From: Eubacterium sp. UBA3720
GTDB lineage: Bacteria > Bacillota > Clostridia > Lachnospirales > Lachnospiraceae
Assembly: GCA_002371335.1 (NCBI GenBank)
Contig: DFHP01000205.1
Span: 1-51,969 of the forward strand
Direction: 5' to 3'
Length of the DNA stretch: 51,969 nucleotides
The notes below the pieces were generated by a model. It was not told the origin of the DNA, did no database searches, and saw only the letters and a program-made list of their open reading frames with translations. How positions within the stretch are numbered: position 1 is the stretch's first letter; the number at the start of each line of letters is the position of its first letter. A program made the position numbers and the translations under genes. Shown piece after piece: positions 15,360 through 41,947 of this stretch.

Positions 15360-15388
15360 ATATATTGTTGTGAACAACAACGTTGATT

Positions 15389-15462
15389 GTGCGGTTAGCT
15401 CAGCTGGATAGAGCGTTTGGCTACGGACCAAAAGGTCGGGGGTTCGAATCCTCTACCGCACG
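15389..15462 (+). tRNA. tRNA-Arg (anticodon ACG)
   Basis: Acceptor GTGCGGT/ACCGCAC. D-loop AGCTCAGCTGGATAGAGC. Anticodon stem TTTGG/CCAAA with loop CTACGGA. T-arm GGTTCGAATCC. Confidence 0.9.
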
Positions 15463-15470
15463 TATTTAAA

Positions 15471-15498
15471 GCACTTACGAAATGTAAGTGCTTTTTTT
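15471..15498 (+). terminator. Intrinsic terminator after tRNA-Arg
   Basis: GCACTTAC / GTAAGTGC stem, 5-nt loop, run of 7 T. Confidence 0.85.
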
Positions 15499-15665
15499 AT
15501 TCCACATAAAATTGTGTCAATTTCCTGTGGAACACCCCCCGTGGGTGCCCACGCCGCACAAAGGAAGGCAGCTACGCAGGGATTCGGTTTGGAAGATGTC
15601 TGCTGAAGCTGACCCGAATCCAGTGCCAGGTCTCGCGAGCGAGACCTGAAAAGAATTGCTATCAT

Positions 15666-16706
15666 TTATTGTTCTTTCGTATATTCCAGAGCCAGACGAT
15701 AAAATATGGGATCCTCCAGTGCATCTTCCCAGTATGAATATATGCCCAGTGTATCGAATATGGCATCCGGCGAAAAACGCAGGCCGTCATAATGATACTG
15801 ATTGGAAATGATCAGACACTGTGTCTTGGGCAGCATCTCATTATTGAGCAGCAGCTTATTCATTTTTCTGGCTGATATCGTGTTCGGCTCGGTTATCATA
15901 AGGATCTCATCCGAAATATCCAGAATATCCTTTATATCTTCATCCATGGAAGATCCAAGATCCAGCACGATATAATCAAAATTCCGTTTCTTTTTTATCA
16001 GCGAGAGCATATTCGCCCAGATCGTCTTATTCAGTCCCAGTTCTCTTAAGTATTTGCGGAATGGTTTCAGATAGGAACAGCCCTGTTCCCGGATATTATC
16101 CAGTATTGCCCAGTACGTATCCCCCGCGTCACATAGCAGTTTTTCCGCCAGCGACTCATCCGCATACGATGTCTCCTCAAAAAAAGCAGCGAAGCTCTGC
16201 ATGTTATCGCAGCCCACCAGCAGGACCTCCTGATCCAGTTTCTGCAGCTTTCTGCTCAGGCCGATCGAGATCAGACTTTTTCCGCATCCTCCGATCGGAG
16301 AATAAACCGAAATGATCTTCGTCGTCTTCTGGTTCTTATGAATATCCAGAATGTTTGAATCCATCTGATCATAGGTATTGGTAATTGTCTTTAAGACATC
16401 CTTTCCGGGAATGTATTTCATCATGACCTGAACGTCATCATCTATCTCCATTCCGAAACGGATCTCCGGCAGCATGAGGATGGTCTTTTTTATCACATGC
16501 TCTTTGAGATATTCCCCATAATTATCATAATCGATCATCAGCAGATCAATATACTGTTCTTCCTGAAAAAAAGCTTCCCGATATTCTTCCTCTGTAATAA
16601 TATGAATTTCAATTCTGTCAGCCAGCCTCGGCACAAGAGCTTCCTCCAGCTGTCTGACATAATCGATATCATTATCCACGATTACAAGATTATGTTTTCT
16701 ATTCAT
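15666..16706 (-). CDS. TadZ/CpaE-like protein: N-terminal receiver-like domain plus atypical ParA/MinD-family ATPase domain
   Basis: 346 aa. N-terminal LVIVDNDIDY...IDLLMIDYD resembles a REC fold. P-loop is VYSPIGGCGKSLISIGL (16275-16301) and Walker B-like is FDYIVLDLG. The signature Lys of the deviant Walker A (KGGxGK[ST]) is replaced by Ile. Confidence 0.8.
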   Translation of the reverse strand: MNRKHNLVIVDNDIDYVRQLEEALVPRLADRIEIHIITEEEYREAFFQEEQYIDLLMIDYDNYGEYLKEHVIKKTILMLPEIRFGMEIDDDVQVMMKYIPGKDVLKTITNTYDQMDSNILDIHKNQKTTKIISVYSPIGGCGKSLISIGLSRKLQKLDQEVLLVGCDNMQSFAAFFEETSYADESLAEKLLCDAGDTYWAILDNIREQGCSYLKPFRKYLRELGLNKTIWANMLSLIKKKRNFDYIVLDLGSSMDEDIKDILDISDEILMITEPNTISARKMNKLLLNNEMLPKTQCLIISNQYHYDGLRFSPDAIFDTLGIYSYWEDALEDPIFYRLALEYTKEQ

Positions 16707-16740
16707 GAAATTACCCTGCTTAATATAAAGTCATAGTCAA

Positions 16741-17607
16741 TTATATGATCAGAAACTCTGTTCCGCCGATCCTCAGGCTGCTTCCGCGTCCGATCGGGAC
16801 CTGCACTTCAGATGCTATGCGCGTATTATTGACAAAAGTACCCGATTCCGTTTCGAAATCATAGATATAAAAATTAATGCCGTTCCATCCTATCTTCGCT
16901 TCTGTCTTTTTATTATCATCATCCTGCTTTTCAACAGGTATCTGACATTTCCCGGGATCGCTTCCGATCATTACCTCTTCATCGGATATGGTATACGAGA
17001 ATACCTCTCCGTTCTCATTTTTCGTCTGAAGAATGATCATACTGTCATCCTGCAGAATATTGCGGTTCATGGTTTCCAAAACCTCGTCCCAGTTTCCGAA
17101 GGACTTCACCTCCTGAAATACCACCCTTCGCCGAAGCAGTTCTCCGTCGTTGATATCTTTTTCGGAATTTTTGGACATTTCTCCCGCTGATTCCGTTCCC
17201 TTGAGCAATCCCTCTATCAGGGCGTATACCCGCTTCTTATAAATATTGTCGGTATCTCCGTCTTTCTCTCTGTATACGGGAAGATATATCAGGCGTATAT
17301 TCTTTTTTTCATCCACATAGATGCTGTCCAGATCCCATATCACATTTTCCTTTGCGATCTCGGGATACTTTTCCAGTTCTTTCACTACAGAAAGAAATCT
17401 CTTTATGACTTCACAGATCTCATCCAGCGTATAAGCTTTCCTGACAGACCCCAGAGAATAAAATCCCTCATTAAAAAAGAACAGTTTTTTTCTGTCATTA
17501 TAGCGTATCCATTTACACGGAAAGAAAAAGCGCTCACCTTTGCCTTTCAGGAAGCTGACCATATCATGATCAATCATTTCCTCTCCGTCCAGAAGAAACT
17601 CACGCAT
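16741..17607 (-). CDS. Hypothetical protein with an uncharacterised N-terminal domain and a C-terminal degenerate FHA domain
   Basis: C-terminal VMIGSDPGKCQIPV ... DFETESGTFVNNTRI ... LRIGGTEFLII follows the FHA beta-sandwich pattern. Start moved to ATG 17607 (RBS GAGGTGG 5 nt upstream), because the track ATG at 17643 lies inside the ftsZ terminator hairpin. Confidence 0.8.
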   Translation of the reverse strand: MREFLLDGEEMIDHDMVSFLKGKGERFFFPCKWIRYNDRKKLFFFNEGFYSLGSVRKAYTLDEICEVIKRFLSVVKELEKYPEIAKENVIWDLDSIYVDEKKNIRLIYLPVYREKDGDTDNIYKKRVYALIEGLLKGTESAGEMSKNSEKDINDGELLRRRVVFQEVKSFGNWDEVLETMNRNILQDDSMIILQTKNENGEVFSYTISDEEVMIGSDPGKCQIPVEKQDDDNKKTEAKIGWNGINFYIYDFETESGTFVNNTRIASEVQVPIGRGSSLRIGGTEFLII

Positions 17608-17630
17608 AAAACCACCTCTTCGCTTTGTTT

Positions 17631-17660
17631 CTAAAAAAGGCATACCAAAGGTATGCCTTT
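17631..17660 (-). terminator. Intrinsic terminator after ftsZ
   Basis: Minus strand: AAAGGCATACC-TTT-GGTATGCCTTT followed by TTTTAG, 42 nt after the ftsZ stop and about 25 nt before the next start codon. Confidence 0.75.
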
Positions 17661-17701
17661 CCTAAATCATATTTGCCTGTATATTCGTTCAGAACGCAAG
17701 C

Positions 17702-18835
17702 TTAATTTCTGTTCTTCAGAAAATCCGGGATCTGGATATCTCTCTTTTCCACAGTGCTTCTGGGATGTCTCGGAGCGGAAGCTGCCGGAATAGGGCGCGG
17801 TGCCTTATAAGCAGATGCAGGACCTGCTTTCTTTTTCTCCTCGGCGTTTTTCTTGCTCTCTGCTACATTCGCCTCTCTGGCTGTAGCGTCATCAAGACCC
17901 GTGGCAATGACTGTGATCTTTGCTGTATCAGATACAGAATCGTCATACATGGCACCAAAGATGATGTTTGCGTCGGCGCCTGCCAGATTCTGGACATAGC
18001 CTGCAGCGTCGCTTGCGTCCATCAGGCTGATATCACCGGAAATATTGATGATTACATGAGACGCGCCCTCGATCGTTGTCTCAAGCAGCGGACTCTGTAC
18101 AGCCTCCTGAACGGCTTCAAGTGCCTTGTCATCGCCTTTGGCCATACCGATTCCGATATGGGCGATTCCTTTATCTTTCATAACTGTCTGCACATCGGCA
18201 AAGTCAAGGTTGATCAGTGCAGGCATATTGATCAGATCGGTAATTCCCTGTACTGACTGCTGAAGCACCTCGTCGGCCTTCTTCAGCGCCTCGGGCATCG
18301 TAGTTCTGCGGTCTACGATCTCCAGAAGCTTGTCATTGGGAATAACGATAAGTGTATCTACGTTCTGTTTCAGTCTGTCGATTCCGGCCAGAGCGTTTGT
18401 CATTCTGGTCCTTGCTTCAAATCGGAAAGGTTTTGTAACGACACCGACTGTCAGGATGCCCATCTCCTTAGCAATACGCGCAACGACAGGAGCAGCTCCT
18501 GTACCTGTTCCGCCGCCCATGCCGCAGGTAACAAACACCATATCCGCGCCTTCCATGAGCTGTTTGATCTCATCTGCGCTCTCTTCCGCAGCTTTTTCTC
18601 CAACCTCAGGTTTCGCTCCGGCACCCAGGCCTTTTGTAATTTTTTCACCGATATTTAAAATCGTAGGCGCTTTGCAAAGTGCCAGAACCTGTTTATCAGT
18701 ATTGATACCCACAAGCTCTACGCCGCCGATGGCCTCGTCGACCATACGATTAACTGCATTGTTTCCCGCGCCGCCGACGCCGATCACGATTATTTTCGCT
18801 GCTGCCTCAGCTTCGTTTGTCATAATTTCTAACAA
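17702..18835 (-). CDS. ftsZ: Cell division GTPase FtsZ (TTG start)
   Basis: [17 protein letters not shown] and [13 protein letters not shown] tubulin signature. C-terminal conserved peptide [14 protein letters not shown] at 18835 lies 7 nt after GGAGG; the first ATG is 19 nt away. Confidence 0.97.
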
Positions 18836-19067: not shown

Positions 19068-20594
19068 TCAGTACCCCTCATAGCCGCTTTCGTCATAGCT
19101 TTCGCTGCCGTAACTGTCATCGTAATTACTTTCCTGCCCTTCGTCATAGCCTTCGCCGCTGCCGTCGTAGCCTTCGTAATCACTGTCGCCGTAGCTGTCA
19201 TAACCGCTGCCGCCGTAGCTGTCATAGCCGCTGCCGTAGCTTTCTTCATCGCGGGAATACGCGTCAGATCCGCTGCTGTCAGATCCGTCCTGCTCTTCTG
19301 AGGTTTCCCCGTCTTTATTCTTATCCTGCGGGATACCATCCTTCCCGGAGGATGTATCTCCGGTCTCTTTCACATCATTTTCAAACACGATATTCTTAGT
19401 GTTTGAATCAAAATTTTCCAGATGAAGTACGCCTGACATTCCTGAAAGCTGAGGCAGGATAGCAGCCGCCCGGGCGATCTTTTCCTCCAGCATGGAATCC
19501 CTTCCCAGCTGTACCCTGATGTTTCCGAAATAAAGGGTCATTCCGCCGTCTTCATCAATATCCACCACTTCCGGATGGATTTCCTGTTTATCCAGCAGTT
19601 TATTCAGCGTCAGTATCGTCTGAAAAACACTTCCGTCCACGGATGTGATCGTAGCGTTAAGGGTGATGCCGTCCGTATCTATACCTCTGATCTCGGGAAG
19701 ATTCGAGATCGCCGCTTCATAGAGATCGTTTCCGCTGCCGCCGGAAGTCTTTCCCGATGTCTTTTTCTTTTCCTCATCTCCGGAGGTGCTTTTCGAAGAT
19801 GTATTCTCTGATTTTTCAGCACTGCCTGTTCCGCTGCTTCCGGAGACATCCGAAGCATCATCCGTAACGCCCGGGGCATCTGCTGATTCAGTGCTCTTGC
19901 CCGATACTGTCCCGGAAGCATCCGAAACTCCGGCAGACTCTGTATCCGTACCTGATGCGGCTCCGGAACCTTCTGCTGCGCCTGCTGACTCTGTGCCCTC
20001 GCCTGATGCCGCTTCGGAACCTTCTGCTGCGCCTGCTGACTCTGTGTCCTCGCCTGATGCGGTCGAAGCCTTTCCAGTTCTCTGGGCATTGCTTTCGGAT
20101 GACTGCTGTGCGCTCAGTTCAGATTTTCCGGCTTCTCCGCCTGTCTGCTGCGCCGCGGACGCATTGTCGGAGGATTTCTGCTTCACGTCATCCTCCCCGG
20201 CAATCTCGCTGAGAATATACCCTTTTTTGTCCACGTAATAGTGGCTGCCTTTAACGTCAAAATATCCAACCGGCGTGTTTTCATTCACATTAAGCCGGAT
20301 CGTATTGCGGTCAATGTATTCCACCTCTATGTAATCGATAAAATCACTGTCCGGTCTGATCACCTTATTGTATCTGGACATGAGCAGCGAGTTAAACGAC
20401 ATGGTGTTTTCCCGGCACATTTCTGTAATCTGCTTTTTCGTAAACAGAGTATTGCCGACGACCTCTATGTCCGTCACATAGAAAATGCCCGCAAAAATAC
20501 CTGTGCCAAACAAAACCGCCAGCAGGACTGTTACGATCATCAGGAATATTCTTCTGTATTTTCTTGTCCGTCTTCTTCTTTTTCTTTTCGCCAT
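19068..20594 (-). CDS. ftsQ: FtsQ/DivIB-type cell division protein with a large disordered insertion and an acidic Tyr-rich tail
   Basis: Basic N-terminus plus TM helix. POTRA-like DIEVVGNTLFTKKQI...IEVEYIDRNTIRLNVNE. FtsQ-like beta domain from about aa 290 to 405. Sits between murD and ftsZ. Low-complexity regions at aa 134-289 and 408-508. Confidence 0.8.
   Translation of the reverse strand: MAKRKRRRRTRKYRRIFLMIVTVLLAVLFGTGIFAGIFYVTDIEVVGNTLFTKKQITEMCRENTMSFNSLLMSRYNKVIRPDSDFIDYIEVEYIDRNTIRLNVNENTPVGYFDVKGSHYYVDKKGYILSEIAGEDDVKQKSSDNASAAQQTGGEAGKSELSAQQSSESNAQRTGKASTASGEDTESAGAAEGSEAASGEGTESAGAAEGSGAASGTDTESAGVSDASGTVSGKSTESADAPGVTDDASDVSGSSGTGSAEKSENTSSKSTSGDEEKKKTSGKTSGGSGNDLYEAAISNLPEIRGIDTDGITLNATITSVDGSVFQTILTLNKLLDKQEIHPEVVDIDEDGGMTLYFGNIRVQLGRDSMLEEKIARAAAILPQLSGMSGVLHLENFDSNTKNIVFENDVKETGDTSSGKDGIPQDKNKDGETSEEQDGSDSSGSDAYSRDEESYGSGYDSYGGSGYDSYGDSDYEGYDGSGEGYDEGQESNYDDSYGSESYDESGYEGY
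19851..20054 (-). repeat. In-frame tandem 51-nt (17-aa) repeats inside ftsQ
   Basis: Protein repeats GEDTESAGAAEGSEAAS / GEGTESAGAAEGSGAAS / GTDTESAGVSDASGTVS / GKSTESADAPGVTDDAS. The first two units are nearly identical at DNA level. Confidence 0.85.
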
Positions 20595-20612
20595 ATTTTA
20601 TGATCCGGGAGA

Positions 20613-21980
20613 TCACAGTTCGTTTGCAAAAGCTTTAAACATATCTCCCCGCTGCTCGTAGTTGTCGAACTGGCCCCAGCTTGCGCATGCGGGAGATAAC
20701 AGGACTGCATCTCCGGGAACTGCTTTTCCCGCGCATACGCCGACTGCCTCCTTCAGGTCCTCACAGAAGATGATCCTCTCCTCCGGAAAACCGCAGGAAA
20801 CGGCACAATCCGCAATCTTCTGCTTCGTCTGGCCGATCAGCACGAGATACTTCACCTTCCCGTCGAAGCTGTTGATCCATTCGTCATAAGTGGATTGTTT
20901 ATCATAACCTCCGCCGATCAGGAGCGTCGGTCTGTTCATTGCCTGAATGCCCTTGATCGCCGCATCCGGATTAGTTCCTTTTGAATCGTTGTAATACTGA
21001 ACCCCGTTCTTTTCCGTTACATATTCGATACGGTGCTCTACACCGGAAAAATTCTTTATCGTATCTCTGATCTTTTCGATGGGTACTCCGGCAAAATCCG
21101 CCATTGCGGCAGCTGTCATCACATTTTCATAGTTATGGAGACCCAGCAGCTTCATCTCCCCTGTTTTTATAAGCGGCCGGATATTCTGTCCGTCAGACAT
21201 ACAGATCCGGTCCCCGTCAAGGTAGATTCCCTTGTCCAAAACACGCCGGCTGGAAAAGAACAGAACATTCGTTTTTTGTTCCAGTGACACGCCGAATTCT
21301 CTAAGGACCTCATCCTCGTAATTCAGGACGCAGAGGTCGTCCATATCCTGATTCTCTGTGATCAGCTCCTTTACACGGATATACTCCTCCATAGTATGAT
21401 GCCGGTTCAGATGATCCGGCGTAATGTTTGTGATCGCGCTTGCCGCAGGATGAAAACTCTCTATCGTCTCCAGCTGAAAGCTGCTGATCTCTGCAACGGT
21501 AACAGCCTCATCGGTCTGCTCTGCCGCTGCGTCTGTATAAGGAAAGCCTATATTGCCGACCACATATACCTCAGGAAAATGGCTTTTCATGATTTCACCC
21601 AGAAGAGCCGTAGTCGTAGTCTTTCCGTTTGTTCCGGTGATAGCGAGGACTTTGCCCTTTCCCACCTGATAGGCGAGCTCTATCTCACTCCAGAGCGCTA
21701 TGTTTTTTTCTTTGATCCTAAGGACCAGAGGAAGGTCACAGGGAACGCCCGGACTGATCACCATGATCTCGATCTCGTCCAGAACGCTCTCGGGCAATTC
21801 ACCTATAATGATCTCCACATTCTGACCGCCGCTGATACGGCTGCGGATCTCTTCCGCATCCCGCTCCGTGTTCTGGTCAAATAATATAGGTCTGGCGCCC
21901 TTCTTAAGCAAAAGCTCTGTCGCACCAATTCCGCTTTTTCCCGCACCAAATACAAGGAACTTTTTCCCCTCAAACTGCAT
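20613..21980 (-). CDS. murD: UDP-N-acetylmuramoyl-L-alanine--D-glutamate ligase
   Basis: 455 aa. FGAGKSGIG N-terminal Rossmann motif and the Mur ligase P-loop ITGTNGKTTT. Confidence 0.95.
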   Translation of the reverse strand: MQFEGKKFLVFGAGKSGIGATELLLKKGARPILFDQNTERDAEEIRSRISGGQNVEIIIGELPESVLDEIEIMVISPGVPCDLPLVLRIKEKNIALWSEIELAYQVGKGKVLAITGTNGKTTTTALLGEIMKSHFPEVYVVGNIGFPYTDAAAEQTDEAVTVAEISSFQLETIESFHPAASAITNITPDHLNRHHTMEEYIRVKELITENQDMDDLCVLNYEDEVLREFGVSLEQKTNVLFFSSRRVLDKGIYLDGDRICMSDGQNIRPLIKTGEMKLLGLHNYENVMTAAAMADFAGVPIEKIRDTIKNFSGVEHRIEYVTEKNGVQYYNDSKGTNPDAAIKGIQAMNRPTLLIGGGYDKQSTYDEWINSFDGKVKYLVLIGQTKQKIADCAVSCGFPEERIIFCEDLKEAVGVCAGKAVPGDAVLLSPACASWGQFDNYEQRGDMFKAFANEL

Positions 21981-22046
21981 TTTTTTCCCTCCGGTTTCAG
22001 TCAGTATTATTATTTCTTCAAAAAATACGTTTCCGATTCAGATCTT

Positions 22047-23003
22047 TTATACGAGATTGATCATCGCCAGAAGACATGTCAGCATGGTTATGATCGTAAA
22101 GATCGTCACTACCCTGGTCTCAGACCATCCTGAAATTTCGAAATGATGATGGATCGGCGCCATCTTGAACAGACGCTTTCCGTGTGTTTTTTTGAAATAG
22201 GATACCTGAAGCACTACAGACAAAAGCTCGATCGTATATATGAATCCGATCACAGGAATATACAACGGCATCTGCAGCACGTAAGCCGTACCTGCCACAA
22301 AACCTCCCAGCGCAAGAGAGCCCGTGTCTCCCATAAAGATCTTCGCCGGATTCGCATTATAGAGAAGGAATGCGAGAAGCGCTCCTATCACTGCGCCCGC
22401 CGCAGGTTCAACCTCCCCTTTTATTACCATGGAAATGATGATGAACGCCATGGAAACAACCACTGTAACACTTGCTGCCAGCCCGTCCACGCCGTCTGTG
22501 AAATTAACGCCGTTTACGGTTGCCAGGACTACTATGAAAAGAAACGGCACTGCTATAATACCGATATCAACCGCCTCGCCTCCCGTAAACGGAATGATCA
22601 TCGCCATACTGATCCCCGCATGGCGGAGCGAAATATAAAACAGAACCGTCACTACAAACTGTCCCAGCAGCTTCTGCCAGGGCATAAGTCCGTCCGATCT
22701 TCTCAGTACCACCTTGAGAAAATCATCCAGGAAGCCGATCACACAGAAACCCGCCGTCAGGATCAGGACCGGAATGATCTTCGGGTATCTTCCCACATAG
22801 ATAAGGCTTGTTATCATGATGCCTATGATGATCATAATGCCGCCCATCGTAGGCGTACCGGCTTTTTTAAGATGTGACTGAACGCCATCCTCCCTTTCGG
22901 TCTGCGCGGCTTTCAGTTTTCTCATGACACGCAGAACAAAATATCCTGAAACAGCTGTAACCGCAAATGAAATTAAAATTGAAAAAATGATTGTCAGATC
23001 CAT
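22047..23003 (-). CDS. mraY: Phospho-N-acetylmuramoyl-pentapeptide transferase
   Basis: 318 aa polytopic protein. KAGTPTMGG, NFTDGVDGLA and PIHHHFE motifs. Confidence 0.97.
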   Translation of the reverse strand: MDLTIIFSILISFAVTAVSGYFVLRVMRKLKAAQTEREDGVQSHLKKAGTPTMGGIMIIIGIMITSLIYVGRYPKIIPVLILTAGFCVIGFLDDFLKVVLRRSDGLMPWQKLLGQFVVTVLFYISLRHAGISMAMIIPFTGGEAVDIGIIAVPFLFIVVLATVNGVNFTDGVDGLAASVTVVVSMAFIIISMVIKGEVEPAAGAVIGALLAFLLYNANPAKIFMGDTGSLALGGFVAGTAYVLQMPLYIPVIGFIYTIELLSVVLQVSYFKKTHGKRLFKMAPIHHHFEISGWSETRVVTIFTIITMLTCLLAMINLV

Positions 23004-23210
23004 CGTTATTTCCCGAACACGGGATTCCTTTCATATTTTTCCGGTAATCTCGCAGCGCTTTCCGGTCGGGAAAGCGTTCGCCCCTTTCAAAAGGCTTCCG
23101 CTCAAAAACTTTTCTGCATTCAATTCATCCGCGCTTCGCAATTACCTGCTTTTATATCCATAAATACTATAAATACTATATGATAAAACTCCCCACTTCA
23201 TATCCGCTGG

Positions 23211-25391
23211 TCAGTTGTTATCATAATCTTCTTCTCCGCTCTCATCAGCGGCATACTCCCCGCCGCTCTCATCGGAGACATCCTCTCCGCCGCCATACTC
23301 TTCATCTTCGCCGCCGCCCGAAGAGCCGGACTCATTGTCCTGTACACCGTCCGAAGCAGTCTCCTCATCCGGCGTTCCTGCTTCAGGATCACTCTGCGTA
23401 GCCGTATCTTCTGCATTTCCTTCTTCATTTCCCGTGAGAGCTTCATCCGGGAACATGTTCATATACGGAAGCAGTTCAGTCATGATCTTTCTGGAGATCG
23501 TAATGGCGTAGGCACTGGTATCCTGCTTTTCTGCGTGCGGCTGGTCAACGACCACATAGACCATGACCTGCGGATTCTCCAGAGGCGCAAATCCCAGGAA
23601 CGAAACCAGATAGTTTTCATCCTCTCTGGGAAGCTTCTGAGCCGTACCTGTCTTTCCACCCATGCTGTAGCCGTCTATTTTCGCACTGTGGCCGGTACCT
23701 GTAACGTCCTCGACCACCATTCCCATGGCTTCTCTCAGATAGTCGCTGATCACCTGGCTGACGACTCTTCTCTCCACCGTACTGTCTGTCTTTGTAATTA
23801 CCGTTCCCTCACTGTCAGTGATCTCGCTGACCACATGAGGCGTATAATAGGTGCCTCCGTTTATGATCGCACAGACCGCGGCGGCCTCCTGCATCATCGT
23901 ACAGGTAAATCCCTGACCGAAGGATGACGTAGCCAGCTCAACTTCTCCCATGGTATTTTCGTCAAACACCATACCGGATACTTCGCCGGGCAGATCTATC
24001 CCTGTCTTTTTTCCGAATTTAAACAGATCCTGATATTTGATCAGGTTCGTTCCTCCCATTTTGGCCGCCACCTGCATCAGAACGTCGTTGCAGGAATATT
24101 TTATAGCTTCCGCCAGGGTCTCATCCCCATGGCCGGCCACACATCCGATATATCTGTCCGCCACCTGCTCGTATCCATCGCAGTTAAAGATCTCGCTGCC
24201 TGTTACGCTTCCAGTTTCCAGAGCGGCCGCGGCAGTTATCGCTTTTACAGTGGATCCCGGCTCAAAGGCCTCCGTGACACAGTAATTCCGCCAAAGCTGA
24301 TTCCATATGGCCATTTTCTCGGTATCCGTCATGTTTGCGGTTTCCGTTTCCGAATAGTACGCGCTGATATCTCTGGGTTCATTCAGATCATACCATTCAG
24401 TAGAATCCATCCCCAGGATCTCTCCGTTGTTAGGATCCATAACGATCACGGCAATGTTCTCAGCCCCCTTCGGAGTCTGCGCGCTGCCGGACACCTCAAT
24501 GCCCTGCTGCACGGCGATCTCTTCATTAAAGGAAATGATCGCCTCCCGTATGATCTGCTGGATATTGACATCGATCGTAGAGATCACGTTATTCCCGTCC
24601 TTCGCGTCCACGATCGACTGGACCACATACGAATCTTCGTTATTCTCCGTATCATAGTATCCGTACTGGCGCCCGTCCGTGCCGTTCAGGACATCTGAAT
24701 AATATCCTTCAATGCCCATCTCAGCCTCGTTGGCCGTATACGTGAATCCGATGGTGTCGCACGCAAGTGATCCAAGAGGATAACTTCTCTTATAATCATC
24801 CTCGAACCAGACGCCTTTGATCCGGCTTCTCTGCTCCTTCGCTTCCCCGGAAAGCTCCTGGTTCGCTTCACTGTCAATATCTGTATACTCTTCAAACGCC
24901 TTTTTATCCGAGATAGATACTCCATCCTTCAGGATGTAATATCTTCTGTCTTTGGTATCTTCTCCATCAAGTACACCGCGAATATCGTCCGTTGGGATGT
25001 CAAAGATATCGTGAAGCGCATTGACTGTCGCTTCATAATAGGGCTTTGATTTCGTTCCTTCCCCGCTGTCCCGCTCATAATTCACCACCTGACAGTCAAG
25101 GATCAGATTATAGACCTTCTCACTGGTAGCCAGGATCGTACCGTTCCGGTCCAGAATATCTCCGCGACGGTATGGTATCGTACGGCTTTCCATTCTCTGC
25201 TGCGCCTGACTGAGAACGATCCTGGAATACTGTTCTCCGTCAGTAAAATTAATATATGTGATCCTGATTGCCAATAAGACTAAAGCCAGTATGACTAACG
25301 CAAACAGTCCTACCAGCTTTTTACTCATACCGACACCGATCTTCCGGCTTCGCCTGGCAATCGGATGCCTGCTATCTCTATTAATCTTCAA
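23211..25391 (-). CDS. Class B penicillin-binding protein (FtsI/PBP2-type transpeptidase) with an acidic C-terminal tail
   Basis: N-terminal TM anchor. Transpeptidase motifs STVK (EPGSTVKAIT), SCN (YSCND) and KTGT (GGKTGTAQ). About 80 aa of D/E/G/S/Y-rich C-terminus. Confidence 0.9.
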   Translation of the reverse strand: MKINRDSRHPIARRSRKIGVGMSKKLVGLFALVILALVLLAIRITYINFTDGEQYSRIVLSQAQQRMESRTIPYRRGDILDRNGTILATSEKVYNLILDCQVVNYERDSGEGTKSKPYYEATVNALHDIFDIPTDDIRGVLDGEDTKDRRYYILKDGVSISDKKAFEEYTDIDSEANQELSGEAKEQRSRIKGVWFEDDYKRSYPLGSLACDTIGFTYTANEAEMGIEGYYSDVLNGTDGRQYGYYDTENNEDSYVVQSIVDAKDGNNVISTIDVNIQQIIREAIISFNEEIAVQQGIEVSGSAQTPKGAENIAVIVMDPNNGEILGMDSTEWYDLNEPRDISAYYSETETANMTDTEKMAIWNQLWRNYCVTEAFEPGSTVKAITAAAALETGSVTGSEIFNCDGYEQVADRYIGCVAGHGDETLAEAIKYSCNDVLMQVAAKMGGTNLIKYQDLFKFGKKTGIDLPGEVSGMVFDENTMGEVELATSSFGQGFTCTMMQEAAAVCAIINGGTYYTPHVVSEITDSEGTVITKTDSTVERRVVSQVISDYLREAMGMVVEDVTGTGHSAKIDGYSMGGKTGTAQKLPREDENYLVSFLGFAPLENPQVMVYVVVDQPHAEKQDTSAYAITISRKIMTELLPYMNMFPDEALTGNEEGNAEDTATQSDPEAGTPDEETASDGVQDNESGSSGGGEDEEYGGGEDVSDESGGEYAADESGEEDYDNN

Positions 25392-25411
25392 ATATATTCA
25401 CCTGTCTGACA

Positions 25412-25906
25412 TCACGGCACTTCCGTATACTGACGTACGTAGCCGTCGTCATCCATATCGTAGTATCTGATCTGTGATTCGGAAGCATAATGCAGTCCCA
25501 GATCGCCAAGGGCCGCCCTTTTGATCTCTTCTATCGTAACGGATGCTATCACTTCATTATAATACGCATCATTATCCGCCTTCAGCTGTGAGAGTTCGCT
25601 TTCCATGCCCGCGATCTCAGCAGACTGCTTCGTCAGTCTGGATTTCAGCTGCAGATAATTAATACAGGAAAAAACGGTCAGTGATAATGCGATCGCAAGC
25701 ACCACAATAAAACCGGCTCCAGCATTTTTTCTTCTTCCGGATCTTCGTTCAGATTTTTTTCTCTTTACTGATTTTTGTTCTTTTCTTCGGGGCTGTCTTT
25801 CTTCAGGATCGTAAGCGGCTCTTCTCACCGCATTTCCGTCTTCGTAGGAATTTCTGATATGAGCACGTTCCGATCTTGAATTTACCCTTCTGTTTCTGTT
25901 TGCCAT
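25412..25906 (-). CDS. ftsL: FtsL-like septum formation protein
   Basis: Basic N-terminal region, a single TM helix (FIVVLAIALSLTVFSCI), then a coiled-coil-like segment. Sits between rsmH and pbp. Confidence 0.7.
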   Translation of the reverse strand: MANRNRRVNSRSERAHIRNSYEDGNAVRRAAYDPEERQPRRKEQKSVKRKKSERRSGRRKNAGAGFIVVLAIALSLTVFSCINYLQLKSRLTKQSAEIAGMESELSQLKADNDAYYNEVIASVTIEEIKRAALGDLGLHYASESQIRYYDMDDDGYVRQYTEVP

Positions 25907-25986
25907 ATCATAATATCCTCGGTCTTATCCTCTGTCAACAGCTTTATTTCGTTCCAAAGCAATGTTTTCGATCGGATGATCTTCTC

Positions 25987-26934
25987 CTATTTCTCTGTTC
26001 TCTTCTCAAAAACACGCAGTTTGGCGCTTTTGGATCTCGGATTGACCTCCATTTCTTCTTCCGTGGGAAGAATCGGTTTCCTGTTTACCGCGAAACCTTT
26101 CGACTTTCTTCCGCAAACACATACCGGAAACTCCGGCGGACAAATACACGGGTTTTCATTCTTTCTGAAATTTTGTTTAACAATCCGATCCTCCAGTGAA
26201 TGAAATGTAATAACACATAGCCTGCCTCCCTCCGCAAGCATATCGATCATTCCATCCAAAGAATTCTCCAGAACCTCCAGTTCCCTGTTCACTTCAATGC
26301 GGATCGCCTGGAATGTTCTTTTCGCAGGATGTCCTCCTGTCTTTCGGTTTTTCGCGGGAACAGAGGACTTAATGATGTCCACCAGTTCACCGGTCGTCTC
26401 TATCGGATGCGCTTCTCTCCGCCGTACGATATTTGCGGCGATCCTGCCTGCAAACCTTTCTTCCCCGTAAGTTCGGATGATCCTTTTCAGTTCTTCTTCC
26501 GAATAAGTATTAAGCACTGTTTCTGCGCTCAGAGACTGTCGCTGGTCCATACGCATGTCCAGCAAAGCTTCCTCCCTGTAGGTGAAGCCTCTGTCCTTAT
26601 CATCCAGCTGATGGGACGATACTCCCAGATCCAGCAGGATACCATTTACTTCCGTAACCCCTGTCTTCCTGAGCATTTCCGCCATGTCGCAATAGTTTCC
26701 GCGCATGATCGCTGCACGATCCTTAAATTCCTTAAGACGATCCTGTGCGGCCTCGATTGCCTCGGCGTCCTGATCTATACCGATCAGTCTCCCCTTCTCA
26801 GAAAGCCTTCTGCAGACCTCCAGTGAATGACCTGCTCCCCCAAGCGTTCCATCCACGTAAATTCCGTCTTCTTTGATATTCAGATTATCGATCACCTCAT
26901 GGAGCATGACCGATGTATGCTGAAAATCCATCAT
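25987..26934 (-). CDS. rsmH: 16S rRNA (cytosine1402-N4)-methyltransferase
   Basis: [11 protein letters not shown]..., [10 protein letters not shown] and [10 protein letters not shown] motifs. Start set at ATG 26934 (AAGAGG 7 nt upstream). The 43 codons further upstream in the track ORF look non-native. Confidence 0.93.
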
Positions 26935-27146
26935 TTGAAACCTCTTTCTCAGATAATCTTTCCCGGGAAACCCCTTTCCCGTAAAAGCCATTCTTCCCAC
27001 GGAATGACTTTTTTTTACCGGAATGCCGCTCTTCCCACGGAACAGCACCGTGACCGTTTTCACGCTTTATCGATCTCCCCTTCGGCAAAATGTTCTCCCC
27101 AGATCACTTCACCGTATAATATCGTTTTGCGCGTCCCCTGAAACGA

Positions 27147-39088: not shown

Positions 39089-41146
39089 TCACGCCGCTCT
39101 GAATGTTACTACAGGATACCTGGCGATCAGTGAATTATCCTCGTAAACATTGATCGTTCCGTTTGTACCGTAGGAGCTGTAGATCGGACTGCTGTAATCG
39201 CCTGACGTCCACGGGTTCGAGCCCTGATAAATGATGCTCGTGATCCCGTTCTGTACCAGCTCCAGAGTTACTCTTCCACCGTTATACTGATCAGGACGTG
39301 CGAGAGTACCGGTGCTGACATAGGAGTCCTCCGACTGACTATCAGAAGAATCTGAGGATCCTCCGTCGTTTACAATGATCGTAACCGTAGATCCCGCAGG
39401 AACCTGAGATCCTGCCTCCGGTGTAGTGGAAATGACCTCATTGGCTCCGACAAGGTCTGAAGATCCTGATGAGATCGAATAATTAAGTCCCAGTGCGGAA
39501 AGCGCGGAAATCGCTCTCTCCTGTGTTTCTCCGCTGACGTTAGGAACCGTCACCTGTTCGCCGGAGCTTTCTCCGCCGCTTCCTGAGCTTACATATACGG
39601 TAACGGAAGCGCCCGGTGAAACTACAGAACCTTCGGATGGATTTGTGGAAACCACGCTTCCTACCGGAACGGAATCGCTTGCCTGAAGCTCAACGACTGT
39701 AGTCAGTCCCATGTCGTTCAGGATCTTTTCGGCATCTGCCTGCGGCATGCCTGCAAGTCCCGAAGGTATCGTTATCTGTGAAATACCGCCGCTGACGGTA
39801 ACCTCAATTGTGGTCTGTTTATCCACCTTTGTTCCTTCAGCGATGTTCTGGTAAAGGATCGTTCCTTCAGCGTAGACATCGGAGCTCTCCGTAGCTACCT
39901 GCTTTACGCCGATGCCAAGAGCGTTTGCCTGCGCGATCGCGTCCTCAAGAGTCATTCCGAGGAAGGAAGGTACTGTTACCTGTTCATCTGCGACGCTTTC
40001 TTCTTTTACAATGCTTGAGCTTACCGAAGTATCTTTACTATTATCGAACAGTCCTGCCATATTGGCTATAAAGAAGATCAGCGCGGCGATGATTATGATT
40101 CCCACAAGGAATCCGCCGATCGTCAGCCCTTTCTCGAGCTTCGAGCCTCCTTTATCTTCCTCTTCATAGTCGTTTTCTATGACTATCGGCTGATGCTTCT
40201 GTTTTTTCTGTTTCGCTTTCTTTTTATCTCTCTCAAGGCTGTCGCGGACATCGTTCATCTCCTTTTCGGAGATCTTTACTGTTCCGGCAGGATCGGAGAG
40301 CCTGTTCATTACCACAAAGTCGCCGTCCGGCTCCAGCAGAGAACGTTTCAGATCTTCGATCATGTCTCCTACGTTCTGGTAACGCTTGTTGGACGTCTTC
40401 ATCGTGGCCTTAAGGATGATCTGCTCAAGGGCATGAGGCAGATCCGGCGTATATTTTGACGGAGGTACCATCTCCTCCTGAAGATGCTTGATGGCGATCG
40501 CCACCGTCGTATCACCGTCGAACGGAACTCTTCCCGTTACCATTTCATACATGGTGATACCCAACGAATATATGTCGCTGCGGGCATCAGACATGCCGCC
40601 GCGCACCTGTTCCGGCGAGCTGTAATGCACGGATCCCATGACGTTCGTGGTGATCGTATTGGAATTCGTGGCTTTCGCGATACCAAAATCAGAAAGCTTC
40701 ACCTTTCCGTCAGTGGAAATAATGATGTTCTGCGGCTTAACGTCTCTGTGGACGATTCCCCTGTTATGGGCCGCCTGCAGTCCGAGCGCCACCTGGATCG
40801 CTATACTTGTGGCCTCTTTTACGGAAAGCTTTCCTTTCTTTGTGATATAGTTCTTAAGCGTGATGCCTTCCACAAGCTCCATTACGATATAATAGAGACC
40901 GCGGTCCTCACCTACGTCAAATACGTTTACTACGTTCGGGTGCGACAGCATCGCTGCCGACTGCGCTTCTTTCTGGAATTTCGAAACAAAGGACTTATCC
41001 TCGCGGAATTCAGCCTTCATTACCTTTACCGCAACCAGACGATTCAGCTTATGATCGTTGGCTTTATAAACATCTGCCATTCCGCCGGAGCCGACTCGAG
41101 ACAGAATTTCATATCTTTCCCCTAATATTATTCCCTCTTTTAACAT
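39089..41146 (-). CDS. prkC: Ser/Thr protein kinase with a TM helix, three PASTA repeats and a C-terminal beta-rich domain
   Basis: Kinase motifs GSGGMADVYKA, VAVK, HRDVKPQN and DFG. TM segment at about aa 345-365. Three repeats, each about 65 aa, of the type VPSFLGM...A...L...GL. Confidence 0.95.
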   Translation of the reverse strand: MLKEGIILGERYEILSRVGSGGMADVYKANDHKLNRLVAVKVMKAEFREDKSFVSKFQKEAQSAAMLSHPNVVNVFDVGEDRGLYYIVMELVEGITLKNYITKKGKLSVKEATSIAIQVALGLQAAHNRGIVHRDVKPQNIIISTDGKVKLSDFGIAKATNSNTITTNVMGSVHYSSPEQVRGGMSDARSDIYSLGITMYEMVTGRVPFDGDTTVAIAIKHLQEEMVPPSKYTPDLPHALEQIILKATMKTSNKRYQNVGDMIEDLKRSLLEPDGDFVVMNRLSDPAGTVKISEKEMNDVRDSLERDKKKAKQKKQKHQPIVIENDYEEEDKGGSKLEKGLTIGGFLVGIIIIAALIFFIANMAGLFDNSKDTSVSSSIVKEESVADEQVTVPSFLGMTLEDAIAQANALGIGVKQVATESSDVYAEGTILYQNIAEGTKVDKQTTIEVTVSGGISQITIPSGLAGMPQADAEKILNDMGLTTVVELQASDSVPVGSVVSTNPSEGSVVSPGASVTVYVSSGSGGESSGEQVTVPNVSGETQERAISALSALGLNYSISSGSSDLVGANEVISTTPEAGSQVPAGSTVTIIVNDGGSSDSSDSQSEDSYVSTGTLARPDQYNGGRVTLELVQNGITSIIYQGSNPWTSGDYSSPIYSSYGTNGTINVYEDNSLIARYPVVTFRAA

Positions 41147-41883
41147 TAATTCACCTCATCTGTAAATGGTTCTACGACGACGACCGCAATATTATCCAGC
41201 CCTCCGTTCTCATTAGCAAGTTCTACCAGTTTTGCCGCCTTGTCATCAATGTCATTTGAGCTAAGGACTTTATAAATGGCGCTTTCCCCCACCATATTGT
41301 ACAGGCCGTCCGAACACATCATGAAGCAGGCGTTTTCCTCCAGTTTGACATCAAAGAAATCTACTCTGATATCCTCCCCGGTACCGACTGCCCTGGTAAT
41401 GATGTTTTTGTCCGGATGATGTTTCGCCTCTTCCGGTGAGAGCTCCCCCAAGCGTACCATTTCTGCGATCAGCGAATGATCGTGAGTGATCTGTGACAAA
41501 CCATCGTTATCCGCGATGTACATACGGCTGTCGCCTACATTTGCCACAAAAACGTAACCTCCTACTACAGTGGCTACCACCATCGTACTTCCCATGCCCG
41601 ACAGCAACGGATCCGAAACGGATTTTTCATAAACGGCGAGATTCGCCGCTTCCACTCCTGCCTGCATGATTTTCACAGGATTAAAATTTTTATCATTTTT
41701 TATGGTTTCGACCAGCGTAGTTACGCCGTAACGTGACGCGTAATCTCCCGCATTATGTCCGCCCATACCATCAGCTACTACAAACAGGTTGGGCAGGTTG
41801 CCGACCGGCTCTGTGGATGTGAACATGTAATCCTGGTTCATATCCCTTTTTCTGCCGACATCAGTTGCTGCTATTACCTTCAT
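41146..41883 (-). CDS. stp: PP2C-family Ser/Thr phosphatase (Stp/PrpC)
   Basis: TDVGRKRDMNQD, VADGMGGH and DNIAVVVV motifs. Start set at ATG 41883 (GGGAG 8 nt upstream). The stop overlaps the prkC ATG (TAATG). Confidence 0.93.
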   Translation of the reverse strand: MKVIAATDVGRKRDMNQDYMFTSTEPVGNLPNLFVVADGMGGHNAGDYASRYGVTTLVETIKNDKNFNPVKIMQAGVEAANLAVYEKSVSDPLLSGMGSTMVVATVVGGYVFVANVGDSRMYIADNDGLSQITHDHSLIAEMVRLGELSPEEAKHHPDKNIITRAVGTGEDIRVDFFDVKLEENACFMMCSDGLYNMVGESAIYKVLSSNDIDDKAAKLVELANENGGLDNIAVVVVEPFTDEVN

Positions 41884-41947
41884 TTTAAATCTCCCGTTCA
41901 AAAACACAGCCCGCATCTGAATGTACTTTACGCGGGCCTGCTTTCTC

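Follow-up and report, generated by a model that had tools for sequence, protein, structure and literature searches.

A conserved DUF6382-FHA and TadZ-type ATPase gene pair downstream of ftsZ in Lachnospiraceae is related to the front end of type VII secretion loci

Contig DFHP01000205.1 of Eubacterium sp. UBA3720 (Lachnospiraceae; assembly GCA_002371335.1) was analysed over its full 51,969 nucleotides, which are called the window here. On its minus strand, ftsZ is followed by a gene for a DUF6382-FHA protein (gene 1) and then by a gene for a TadZ-type ATPase (gene 2). A sequence-only reading of the same DNA had taken Tad pili as the comparison for this pair. That comparison has to be replaced: remote homologues of both genes head yukD-essC-WXG100 operons, i.e. 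type VII secretion systems (T7SS), and the domain pair as such has already been described there as TseJ/TsfJ and TsfV (PMC11217815). Here the pair is found in a stand-alone form. On balance, we lean towards the explanation that the pair is a diverged copy of the front end of the clostridial/Lachnospiraceae T7SS, which would now function as a module of ATPase hub and adaptor, independently of any T7SS encoded in cis.

The gene structures could be confirmed. Two co-oriented genes of 288 and 346 codons had been proposed behind ftsZ, 34 nt apart and facing a convergent tRNA-Arg, and the open reading frames (ORFs) are indeed found at these positions (Table 1). For gene 1, an ORF of 300 aa can also be read from the first ATG. 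This is unlikely to be the real start because it lies inside the terminator-like hairpin that follows ftsZ. The ATG at 17607 sits behind a Shine-Dalgarno-like AAGAGGTGG, and gene 1 was therefore taken as 16741-17607 (288 aa). The proposed domains, FHA for the first protein and a TadZ-like receiver with a ParA/MinD ATPase for the second, also proved right. Profile searches returned DUF6382 (31.4 bits, cut-off 26.7) and FHA (26.9 bits, cut-off 20.7) for gene 1, AAA_31 (37.5 bits) and CbiA (28.2 bits) for gene 2, and gene 2 matched the TadZ structure 3FKQ. The Pfam match of gene 2 to TadZ-like_ARD was below threshold (18.4 bits, cut-off 27.4). By hydropathy, no segment resembling a transmembrane (TM) helix was seen in gene 2 or in gene 1, where the maximum 19-residue Kyte-Doolittle value is 0.77.

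The two genes form a true unit that has been conserved, and they are not a product of chance ORFs. Homologues of the ATPase fall into 97 clusters (36-99% identity, all about 346 aa), labelled, where an organism is given, as Eubacterium sp., Bilifractor sp. or Eubacteriales. By scanning one genome per species with two family-specific peptides, 43 related loci were obtained, each covered within ±10 kb of the pair. Their labels are nearly all Lachnospiraceae or related (Bilifractor, [Eubacterium] cellulosolvens, Candidatus Scatomonas), and a few look mis-binned. Among the carriers are Bilifractor porci (NZ_VUMV01) and [Eubacterium] cellulosolvens LD2006 (NZ_JHXY01), both species in culture, as well as Lachnospiraceae bacterium FE2018 (JNKK01) and a Candidatus Scatomonas with a closed chromosome (OZ006967.1). 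With the window proteins as tblastn queries, the DUF6382-FHA gene was found directly upstream of the ATPase gene in 43/43 loci, mostly with spacers of 7-34 nt. What lies downstream differs between the loci; examples are a GH9 cellulase, CobW, GDPD, a cation-efflux protein, an Fe-hydrogenase and DUF4349. Among 104 representative ORFs taken from within 6 kb, 140 Pfam families were counted, each in at most 3 ORFs, and no activator-like gene recurred near the pair. A longer candidate for a tandem FHA paralogue (430-545 aa), seen upstream of the pair in many loci, was rejected: the example tested proved to be AroD, a type I 3-dehydroquinase that is extended at its N-terminus. Single-linkage clustering had probably drawn in these false paralogues.

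Counterparts of both proteins are known as T7SS components. TseJ, TsfJ and TsjJ are the DUF6382-FHA components of the T7SSe, T7SSf and T7SSj variants in Bacillota, and TsfV is the TadZ-like-ARD ATPase of T7SSf in Clostridia (Garrett et al. 2024, PMC11217815). TsfJ/TseJ/TsjJ and TsfV display the same two domain architectures as the window pair, with the same gene adjacency and order. Gene 1 is soluble, as is TseJ, and contains no TM helices, whereas TsfJ contains two. T7SS-linked homologues can be aligned over the full length of both proteins at 24-30% identity, with E-values down to 8e-23 for gene 1 and its DUF6382-FHA counterparts and down to 1e-41 for the ATPases. Of the 44 sequences searched (43 loci and the window), all or nearly all gave a match to the T7SS-linked FHA and ATPase queries.

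Four distinct complete T7SS loci were sampled (L044/L045, L047, L050/L051 and L052/L053). Each of them has an adjacent pair immediately before yukD-essC-WXG100, and the genes run DUF6382-FHA, ATPase, YukD, EssC (~1500 aa) and WXG100. Loci of this type were reached, independently of the publication, from the remotest matches of the searches with the two proteins. The P0123 locus reads PP2C phosphatase, Ser/Thr kinase, a 1524-aa protein, two DUF6382-FHA genes, a 350-aa AAA_31 ATPase, YukD, a 1505-aa EssC-like FtsK ATPase and WXG100. In the P0124 locus a divergent kinase is followed by DUF6382-FHA, ATPase, YukD, EssC and WXG100, and the P0098 locus shows the pair and a divergent kinase before the contig ends after the ATPase. 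With a profile of the T7SS-type ATPases, at least 396 clusters were retrieved, and two additional loci looked up from them had an identical gene order. Three organism labels are given for the clusters (Lachnospiraceae bacterium, Eubacterium sp. and Bacteroides acidifaciens), and one cluster labelled Lachnospiraceae bacterium occurs on more than 1000 contigs. In cluster P0208, a 456-aa protein joins the TadZ-like ATPase (AAA_31) and YukD domains, a fusion that suggests direct functional contact of ATPase and YukD in T7SS.

A very common T7SS locus of Lachnospiraceae can be described as PP2C, Ser/Thr kinase, a small ORF, a giant protein of 1500-2460 aa and DUF6382-FHA, followed by the TadZ-like ATPase, YukD, EssC, WXG100, 3-5 unannotated ORFs, a TPR protein and further WXG100 genes. 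In L047 the kinase is divergent, and the PP2C and giant genes are lacking. T7SSf was published with "no kinase genetically associated" (PMC11217815), unlike the loci that bear a kinase in cis, and the latter may represent a distinct variant. The kinase and phosphatase that accompany T7SS-linked versions of the pair recall the Fha1-PpkA-PppA set of type VI secretion. There, as for the mycobacterial divisome proteins FhaB/FipA, a small FHA protein is likewise encoded with a secretion or division machine. Unlike in these two systems, the phosphate-binding Arg is missing from the orphan FHA domain, and FhaB itself shares with gene 1 a generic FHA domain match only (25 bits, cut-off 125).

None of the secretion machinery accompanies the orphan pair. 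YukD, EssC, WXG100 and the downstream T7SS genes of L044 and L047 gave 0 tblastn matches in the 43 loci and the 52-kb window. In contrast to TsfJ/TseJ and TsfV, the window pair has no yukD, essC, esxA or dedicated kinase and phosphatase nearby, and the genomic home of the orphan pair is downstream of ftsZ. The proteins differ from the T7SS pair as well: the orphan FHA domain has lost a basic pocket residue, and the orphan ATPase is shorter at its C-terminus, where a new conserved motif is found.

The N-terminal domain of gene 1, called uncharacterised in the sequence-only reading, is DUF6382 and was modelled as an EssB/YukC-like pseudokinase. The AlphaFold2 model of gene 1 (23 sequences) reached a predicted local distance difference test score (pLDDT) of 87.4 and a pTM of 0.71. 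When its DUF6382 part was compared to the PDB by Foldseek, S. aureus EssB (4ANN, E 1.8e-4), G. thermodenitrificans EssB (4ANO, E 2.3e-4) and B. subtilis YukC (6Z0F, E 4e-4) were matched over about 200 columns, in each case in the cytoplasmic pseudokinase domain. Normalised to the target, the template modelling (TM) scores were 0.50-0.57 with 4ANN/4ANO; with 6Z0F, whose YukC chain is longer, the score was 0.31. With the family sequence profile, no PDB match was obtained for this part, and no sequence-level similarity of EssB/YukC to gene 1 is detectable. The EssB/YukC-like fold is therefore graded as probable, not proven. EssB/YukC are membrane pseudokinases of the T7SSb core; gene 1, on the contrary, lacks their single TM helix and extracellular domain and ends in an FHA domain instead.

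This FHA domain is supported by the profile search against the PDB (E 8e-9) and by Foldseek, in which the last 100 residues fall among FHA domains. FHA domains with canonical phosphothreonine binding contain an Arg in the beta3-beta4 loop, a Ser-x-x-His motif in the beta4-beta5 loop and an Asn in the beta6-beta7 loop. Reading these positions from an alignment with GarA, it was found that the phosphate-binding Arg (GR motif) has been substituted by Ser or Thr (GS/GT) in 43/43 relatives and in the window protein; the sampled T7SS-linked copies have GK here. Most orphan copies keep the S-x-x-H motif. In the window protein it reads KTEAK, Ser replaces the Asn of the S-x-N-G-T loop, and the canonical signature is absent. 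The same protein is a family outlier with a 14-residue insert (~aa 140-155).

For gene 2, the best solved structure is TadZ from E. rectale (3FKQ), with E 4e-8 for the single sequence and E 2.4e-21 for the family profile, the latter over residues 4-316 and thus both domains. The AlphaFold2 model (pLDDT 88.7) matched 3FKQ in Foldseek over 359 columns (E 2.8e-15), followed by ParA, Soj, MinD and FlhG, which were matched in the ATPase domain only. Gene 2 accordingly has the layout of TadZ/CpaE, an atypical receiver followed by a ParA/MinD-like ATPase. At the end of beta-3 in the receiver (D59 in the window protein), the family shows Asp, Ala, Ser, Gly or Glu, so there is no conserved phospho-acceptor.

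Conservation in gene 2 was read from an alignment of 28 family members. Residues S136, G139, G140, G142 and K143 of Walker A and the Walker B Asp (D249) are invariant. The Walker A consensus is S-P-[IV]-G-G-[CS]-G-K-S, with Pro-Ile at the signature site and without the MinD/ParA signature lysine. This lysine is also missing from 3FKQ, where the P-loop reads GGVGTS as opposed to GGCGKS in the gene 2 family, which has kept the P-loop lysine. The orphan-specific motif of the last helix is E-D-P-[VI]-F-Y-R-L-A-L-E, in which D332 is invariant and conservation reaches 90% or more at P333, F335, Y336, A339 and L340; a further 2-6 residues complete the protein. The three T7SS-linked ATPases compared have another sequence at this helix and about 12 extra C-terminal residues. 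As helix 333-343 was modelled at pLDDT 92-96, it is probably packed on the fold. Mimicry of the FtsZ C-terminal peptide by this end of the protein was set aside. The confidently modelled helix suggests a part of the fold, a homologous E-[ED]-P-I helix is present in T7SS-linked relatives, and the likeness to the FtsZ tail of the window (IPDFLKNRN) is loose, being limited to P-x-F-hydrophobic-basic.

The mechanism that may be proposed from these features is as follows. In this Lachnospiraceae lineage, the pair would have been separated from yukD-essC-esxA. The ATPase would bind ATP and, by analogy with TadZ, act as a fairly static hub for localisation or assembly and not as a Min-type oscillator. 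The pseudokinase-FHA protein would be the obligate adaptor between this ATPase and a client. Client recognition would probably be phospho-independent or non-canonical: Ser or Thr takes the place of the phosphate-binding Arg/Lys in every orphan copy, and the Ser-x-x-His motif has been lost as well in the window protein. In our judgement the pair now serves something other than a cis-encoded T7SS. Such a function is favoured because the C-terminal tail of the ATPase has been lost, the FHA loop has changed, and the sampled T7SS loci keep a pair of their own.

The client may be sought at the site of the pair. In 10 of the 43 loci, and in the window, ftsZ lies at most 400 nt upstream, and in 15 others it lies 1.5-2.9 kb upstream. 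Since 9 loci include too little upstream sequence, 34 are informative, and linkage to ftsZ (within 2.9 kb upstream) amounts to 25/34. The FtsZ genes at the related loci are 69-83% identical to that of the window. When the ATPases were placed in a neighbour-joining tree with the T7SS-linked forms as root, members adjacent to ftsZ were present in both deep clades. The counter-case named in the sequence-only reading, orthologues within tad loci and an adjacency to ftsZ peculiar to this genome, is therefore not what was found: the loci are free of tad genes and the linkage is shared. In one clade (L030, L032, L036, L040 and L042), ftsZ lies behind rplO-secY-adk-map-infA and not in the dcw cluster. 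Both the upstream and the downstream genes differ in this clade, which leaves ftsZ as the only neighbour common to both contexts. The end of a ribosomal protein operon (L040:4005-8872 and the other four loci) is an unusual site for ftsZ.

The ancestral site of the pair appears to be just downstream of ftsZ, with the linkage lost several times. This makes the division or septal apparatus the leading, if unproven, client candidate by virtue of position. The linkage is real and old within the family and is the sole clue to the client, yet it is weak evidence. Searches of the literature for TadZ-like proteins with ftsZ, and for type VII secretion with Lachnospiraceae and EssC, found nothing relevant.

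The 94-nt spacer between the ftsZ stop and gene 1 folds at -29.1 kcal/mol (z = -4.4) and contains an intrinsic-terminator-like hairpin. The minimum-energy fold pairs the U-run with the A-run that precedes the hairpin. The hairpin was found by reading and folding the spacer, as the automated terminator scan missed it. A promoter of the pair's own was sought, and no sigma-70-like site could be identified on the minus strand from 17608 to about 17900. Expression would thus most simply proceed via read-through of the ftsZ terminator, and its level is probably low.

Several observations weigh against a stand-alone module with a client near FtsZ. The identity of orphan to T7SS-linked proteins (24-30%) is similar to that between T7SS-linked subfamilies (21-38%), so divergence alone is no proof of a new function. 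The absence of T7SS genes applies to ±10 kb per locus and the 52-kb window, and a T7SS elsewhere in the genome could use the pair in trans. The similarity to EssB is structural only (Foldseek E ~2e-4, target-normalised TM 0.50-0.57 for 4ANN/4ANO and 0.31 for 6Z0F). In 9 of the 43 loci, ftsZ was not found within at least 5.9 kb of upstream sequence, and in 15 loci an aroE/aroD or MatE transporter gene stands between ftsZ and the pair. A terminator-like GC-rich hairpin with a T-run follows ftsZ in 10/10 of the directly adjacent related loci. The region behind ftsZ, at the end of an operon, is evidently variable, and in the clade of the window, inherited regional synteny (ftsZ ... plsC-ispE-gntR) can explain the adjacency. 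As to the inserted genes, aroE (on the opposite strand) and aroD are found at L011:6752-9132 and in about 12 other loci; in the AroD of L011, the one tested above, some 200 residues without a Pfam match precede the dehydroquinase domain.

A bolder extension of the stand-alone reading holds that a T7SS assembly module was exapted as a Min-independent division regulator or landmark in a rumen and gut clade of Lachnospiraceae. On this view, the pair would have been kept beside ftsZ across deep divergence for its function, and a new client would account for the changes in the FHA pocket and at the C-terminus of the ATPase. We regard this as a rather unlikely, speculative scenario.

The sequence-only reading had suggested a divisome-positioning or regulatory module. 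As a rival explanation, the strong form of this would be a dedicated system for Z-ring positioning or regulation, in which the ATPase has the role of a MinD, MipZ or PomZ and is linked through the FHA protein to Ser/Thr-kinase signalling, e.g. by the PASTA kinase of the window. Such a system is unlikely. It has on its side the conserved linkage to ftsZ in both deep clades, including genomes where ftsZ alone is common to the two contexts, the absence of min and ftsA, as previously proposed, from the larger ORFs of the window (Pfam), and the presence of a PASTA kinase and a PP2C phosphatase there. In addition, Rv3660c, an actinobacterial CpaE/TadZ homologue, partially complemented an E. coli minDE mutant (PMC10482377). 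This precedent is disputed, however, as the same study concluded that Rv3660c is not the true MinD homologue (PMC10482377).

With MinD, MipZ, PomZ and FlhG, gene 2 shares the ParA/MinD fold, the Walker A lysine, the Walker B aspartate and the proximity to ftsZ. Unlike them, it lacks the signature lysine (K-G-G-x-G-K-[ST]), its Walker A being SPIGGCGKS, and it possesses an additional N-terminal receiver-like domain. No MinC/MinE/ParB-type partner accompanies it, and neither a free membrane-targeting helix nor a free amphipathic C-terminal tail is predicted, the terminal helix being modelled within the fold. The analogy to MinD, MipZ and PomZ consequently fails at the signature lysine. The coupling to a kinase is countered by the degenerate phosphothreonine pocket, most degenerate in the window protein. 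The terminator after ftsZ in every adjacent case, the unrelated genes inserted in 15 loci and the 9 loci without linkage also speak against a dedicated system. Of the divisome proposal, the conserved pair and its linkage to ftsZ stand, and synteny is therefore the one argument left to it.

Alternatively, the pair could still be a T7SS component in a split operon that serves a yukD-essC-esxA set elsewhere in the genome, its proximity to ftsZ being incidental. This is also considered fairly improbable. All four distinct readable loci of remote homologues are T7SS-embedded, the T7SS-type ATPases are numerous, and both orphan genes are intact and together, as the parts of a working machine would be. 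The same four complete loci, however, have their own pair in cis, and no T7SS gene was found within 10 kb in the 43 loci or in the window. Moreover, the orphan ATPases lost the C-terminal tail seen in the three T7SS-linked ATPases compared, the Lys/Arg of the FHA loop has been replaced in all orphans, and P0208 joins ATPase and YukD in a single protein. A weak further point is that the searched portion of the T7SS survey supplements names none of the carrier taxa.

The pair is not a part of a Tad pilus. That gene 2 is an orphan TadZ/CpaE which localises a Tad/Flp pilus encoded elsewhere is suggested by its best solved-structure match, a protein deposited as E. rectale TadZ, and is nevertheless highly improbable. 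Unlike TadZ/CpaE, gene 2 lies outside any tad locus and is always paired with a pseudokinase-FHA protein, and this obligate DUF6382-FHA partner is of a type reported from T7SS (PMC11217815). As the sequence-only reading had stated for the window, no tad genes are present there, nor within ±10 kb of the pair in 43/43 loci (Pfam on samples). No TadA-type Walker A motif was found in 700 kb of neighbourhood sequence, and the closest relatives other than orphans belong to T7SS loci, not to tad loci. Equally remote is the possibility that the pair is left over from a lost secretion locus, is decaying and has no current function. In its favour, no other FHA domain of the family is as degenerate as that of the window, and expression seems to depend on terminator read-through. 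Against it, 43 species-level genomes and 97 protein clusters have intact ORFs, the catalytic residues and the new motifs do not vary, and both proteins gave confident AlphaFold2 models.

The surroundings of the pair in the window can be summarised as follows. The dcw cluster (19068-27063) contains rsmH, a small ORF, a penicillin-binding protein, mraY, murD and an ftsQ/divIB-like gene, and is closed by ftsZ; ftsW, murG and ftsA are not present in it. The FtsQ-like protein (508 aa) has a long repetitive insert rich in Ser/Gly/Ala/Glu and an acidic tail rich in Tyr/Asp/Gly/Ser. On the other side, the 200-nt stretch from the gene 2 stop to the tRNA-Arg (15464-15665) contains several hairpins, e.g. 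GATTCGG...CCGAATC, and one doubtful 70-aa ORF, and has no Rfam match. A structured RNA or riboswitch around the pair was rejected, as Rfam matched two tRNAs only. Pfam scans of the larger ORFs of the window returned housekeeping genes, and no tad or T7SS genes were among them.

The PASTA kinase and the PP2C phosphatase are the sole kinase/phosphatase pair in the window. They lie 21 kb from the gene pair, outside its locus, in an operon that reads priA-def-fmt-rsmB-rlmN-PP2C phosphatase-PASTA kinase-rsgA-rpe-thiamin pyrophosphokinase, and are 28-32% identical to the Ser/Thr kinase and PP2C of the T7SS locus L044. The kinase would be the obvious candidate for the FHA protein, though the FHA pocket looks degenerate. 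Both enzymes are candidate partners of the pair.

Table 1. Coordinates of the features of the window and of the T7SS loci used for comparison
Feature	Position	Strand	Basis
tRNA-Arg(ACG), convergent to the pair	15388-15463	plus	ARAGORN, Rfam
Bidirectional-looking terminator beside tRNA-Arg(ACG)	15468-15494		Terminator scan
Gene 2, TadZ-type protein, 346 aa (receiver-like + ParA/MinD-like ATPase; TsfV-like)	15666-16706	minus	ORF, Pfam, structure matches
C-terminal helix of gene 2 with orphan-specific motif	15669-15719	minus	Alignment of 28 members
Walker A of gene 2, S-P-I-G-G-C-G-K-S, aa 136-144	16275-16301	minus	Family alignment
Atypical receiver-like domain of gene 2, ~aa 1-120	16347-16706	minus	Aligned to 3FKQ from residue 4
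Gene 1, soluble DUF6382+FHA protein, 288 aa (TseJ/TsfJ-like adaptor, putative)	16741-17607	minus	ORF, Pfam, AlphaFold2
C-terminal FHA domain of gene 1, ~aa 190-288, degenerate phosphothreonine pocket	16744-17040	minus	Pfam, profile against PDB, Foldseek
N-terminal DUF6382 domain of gene 1, ~aa 1-188, probable EssB/YukC-like pseudokinase fold	17044-17607	minus	Foldseek against PDB
Intrinsic-terminator-like hairpin between ftsZ and gene 1	17630-17666	minus	GGCAUACC-UUU-GGUAUGCC then U6
ftsZ, upstream neighbour	17702-18835	minus	Pfam Tubulin 178.5 bits, FtsZ_C 87.6 bits
PASTA Ser/Thr kinase	39089-41146	minus	Pfam Pkinase 197 bits + 3 PASTA repeats
PP2C phosphatase	41146-41916	minus	Pfam PP2C
T7SS loci of the common Lachnospiraceae order	L044:1201-19862; L047:6448-19434; L050:1-21059; L052:1-20055		

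Even on a conservative reading, these results are relevant for the T7SS field. DUF6382 resembles an EssB-type pseudokinase in soluble form, the genes for the DUF6382-FHA and TadZ-like proteins are constantly paired at the head of a very common T7SS of Lachnospiraceae, and one protein cluster fuses the ATPase and YukD domains. To annotate genes of this kind as Tad pilus or MinD proteins is tempting, and the analysis corrects this error. Should the pair function without a T7SS, it would clearly exemplify how the assembly module of a secretion machine has been re-used for another cellular task. It would then provide a defined starting point for the study of division or envelope regulators in Lachnospiraceae, an abundant family of the gut and rumen whose cell biology is almost unstudied.

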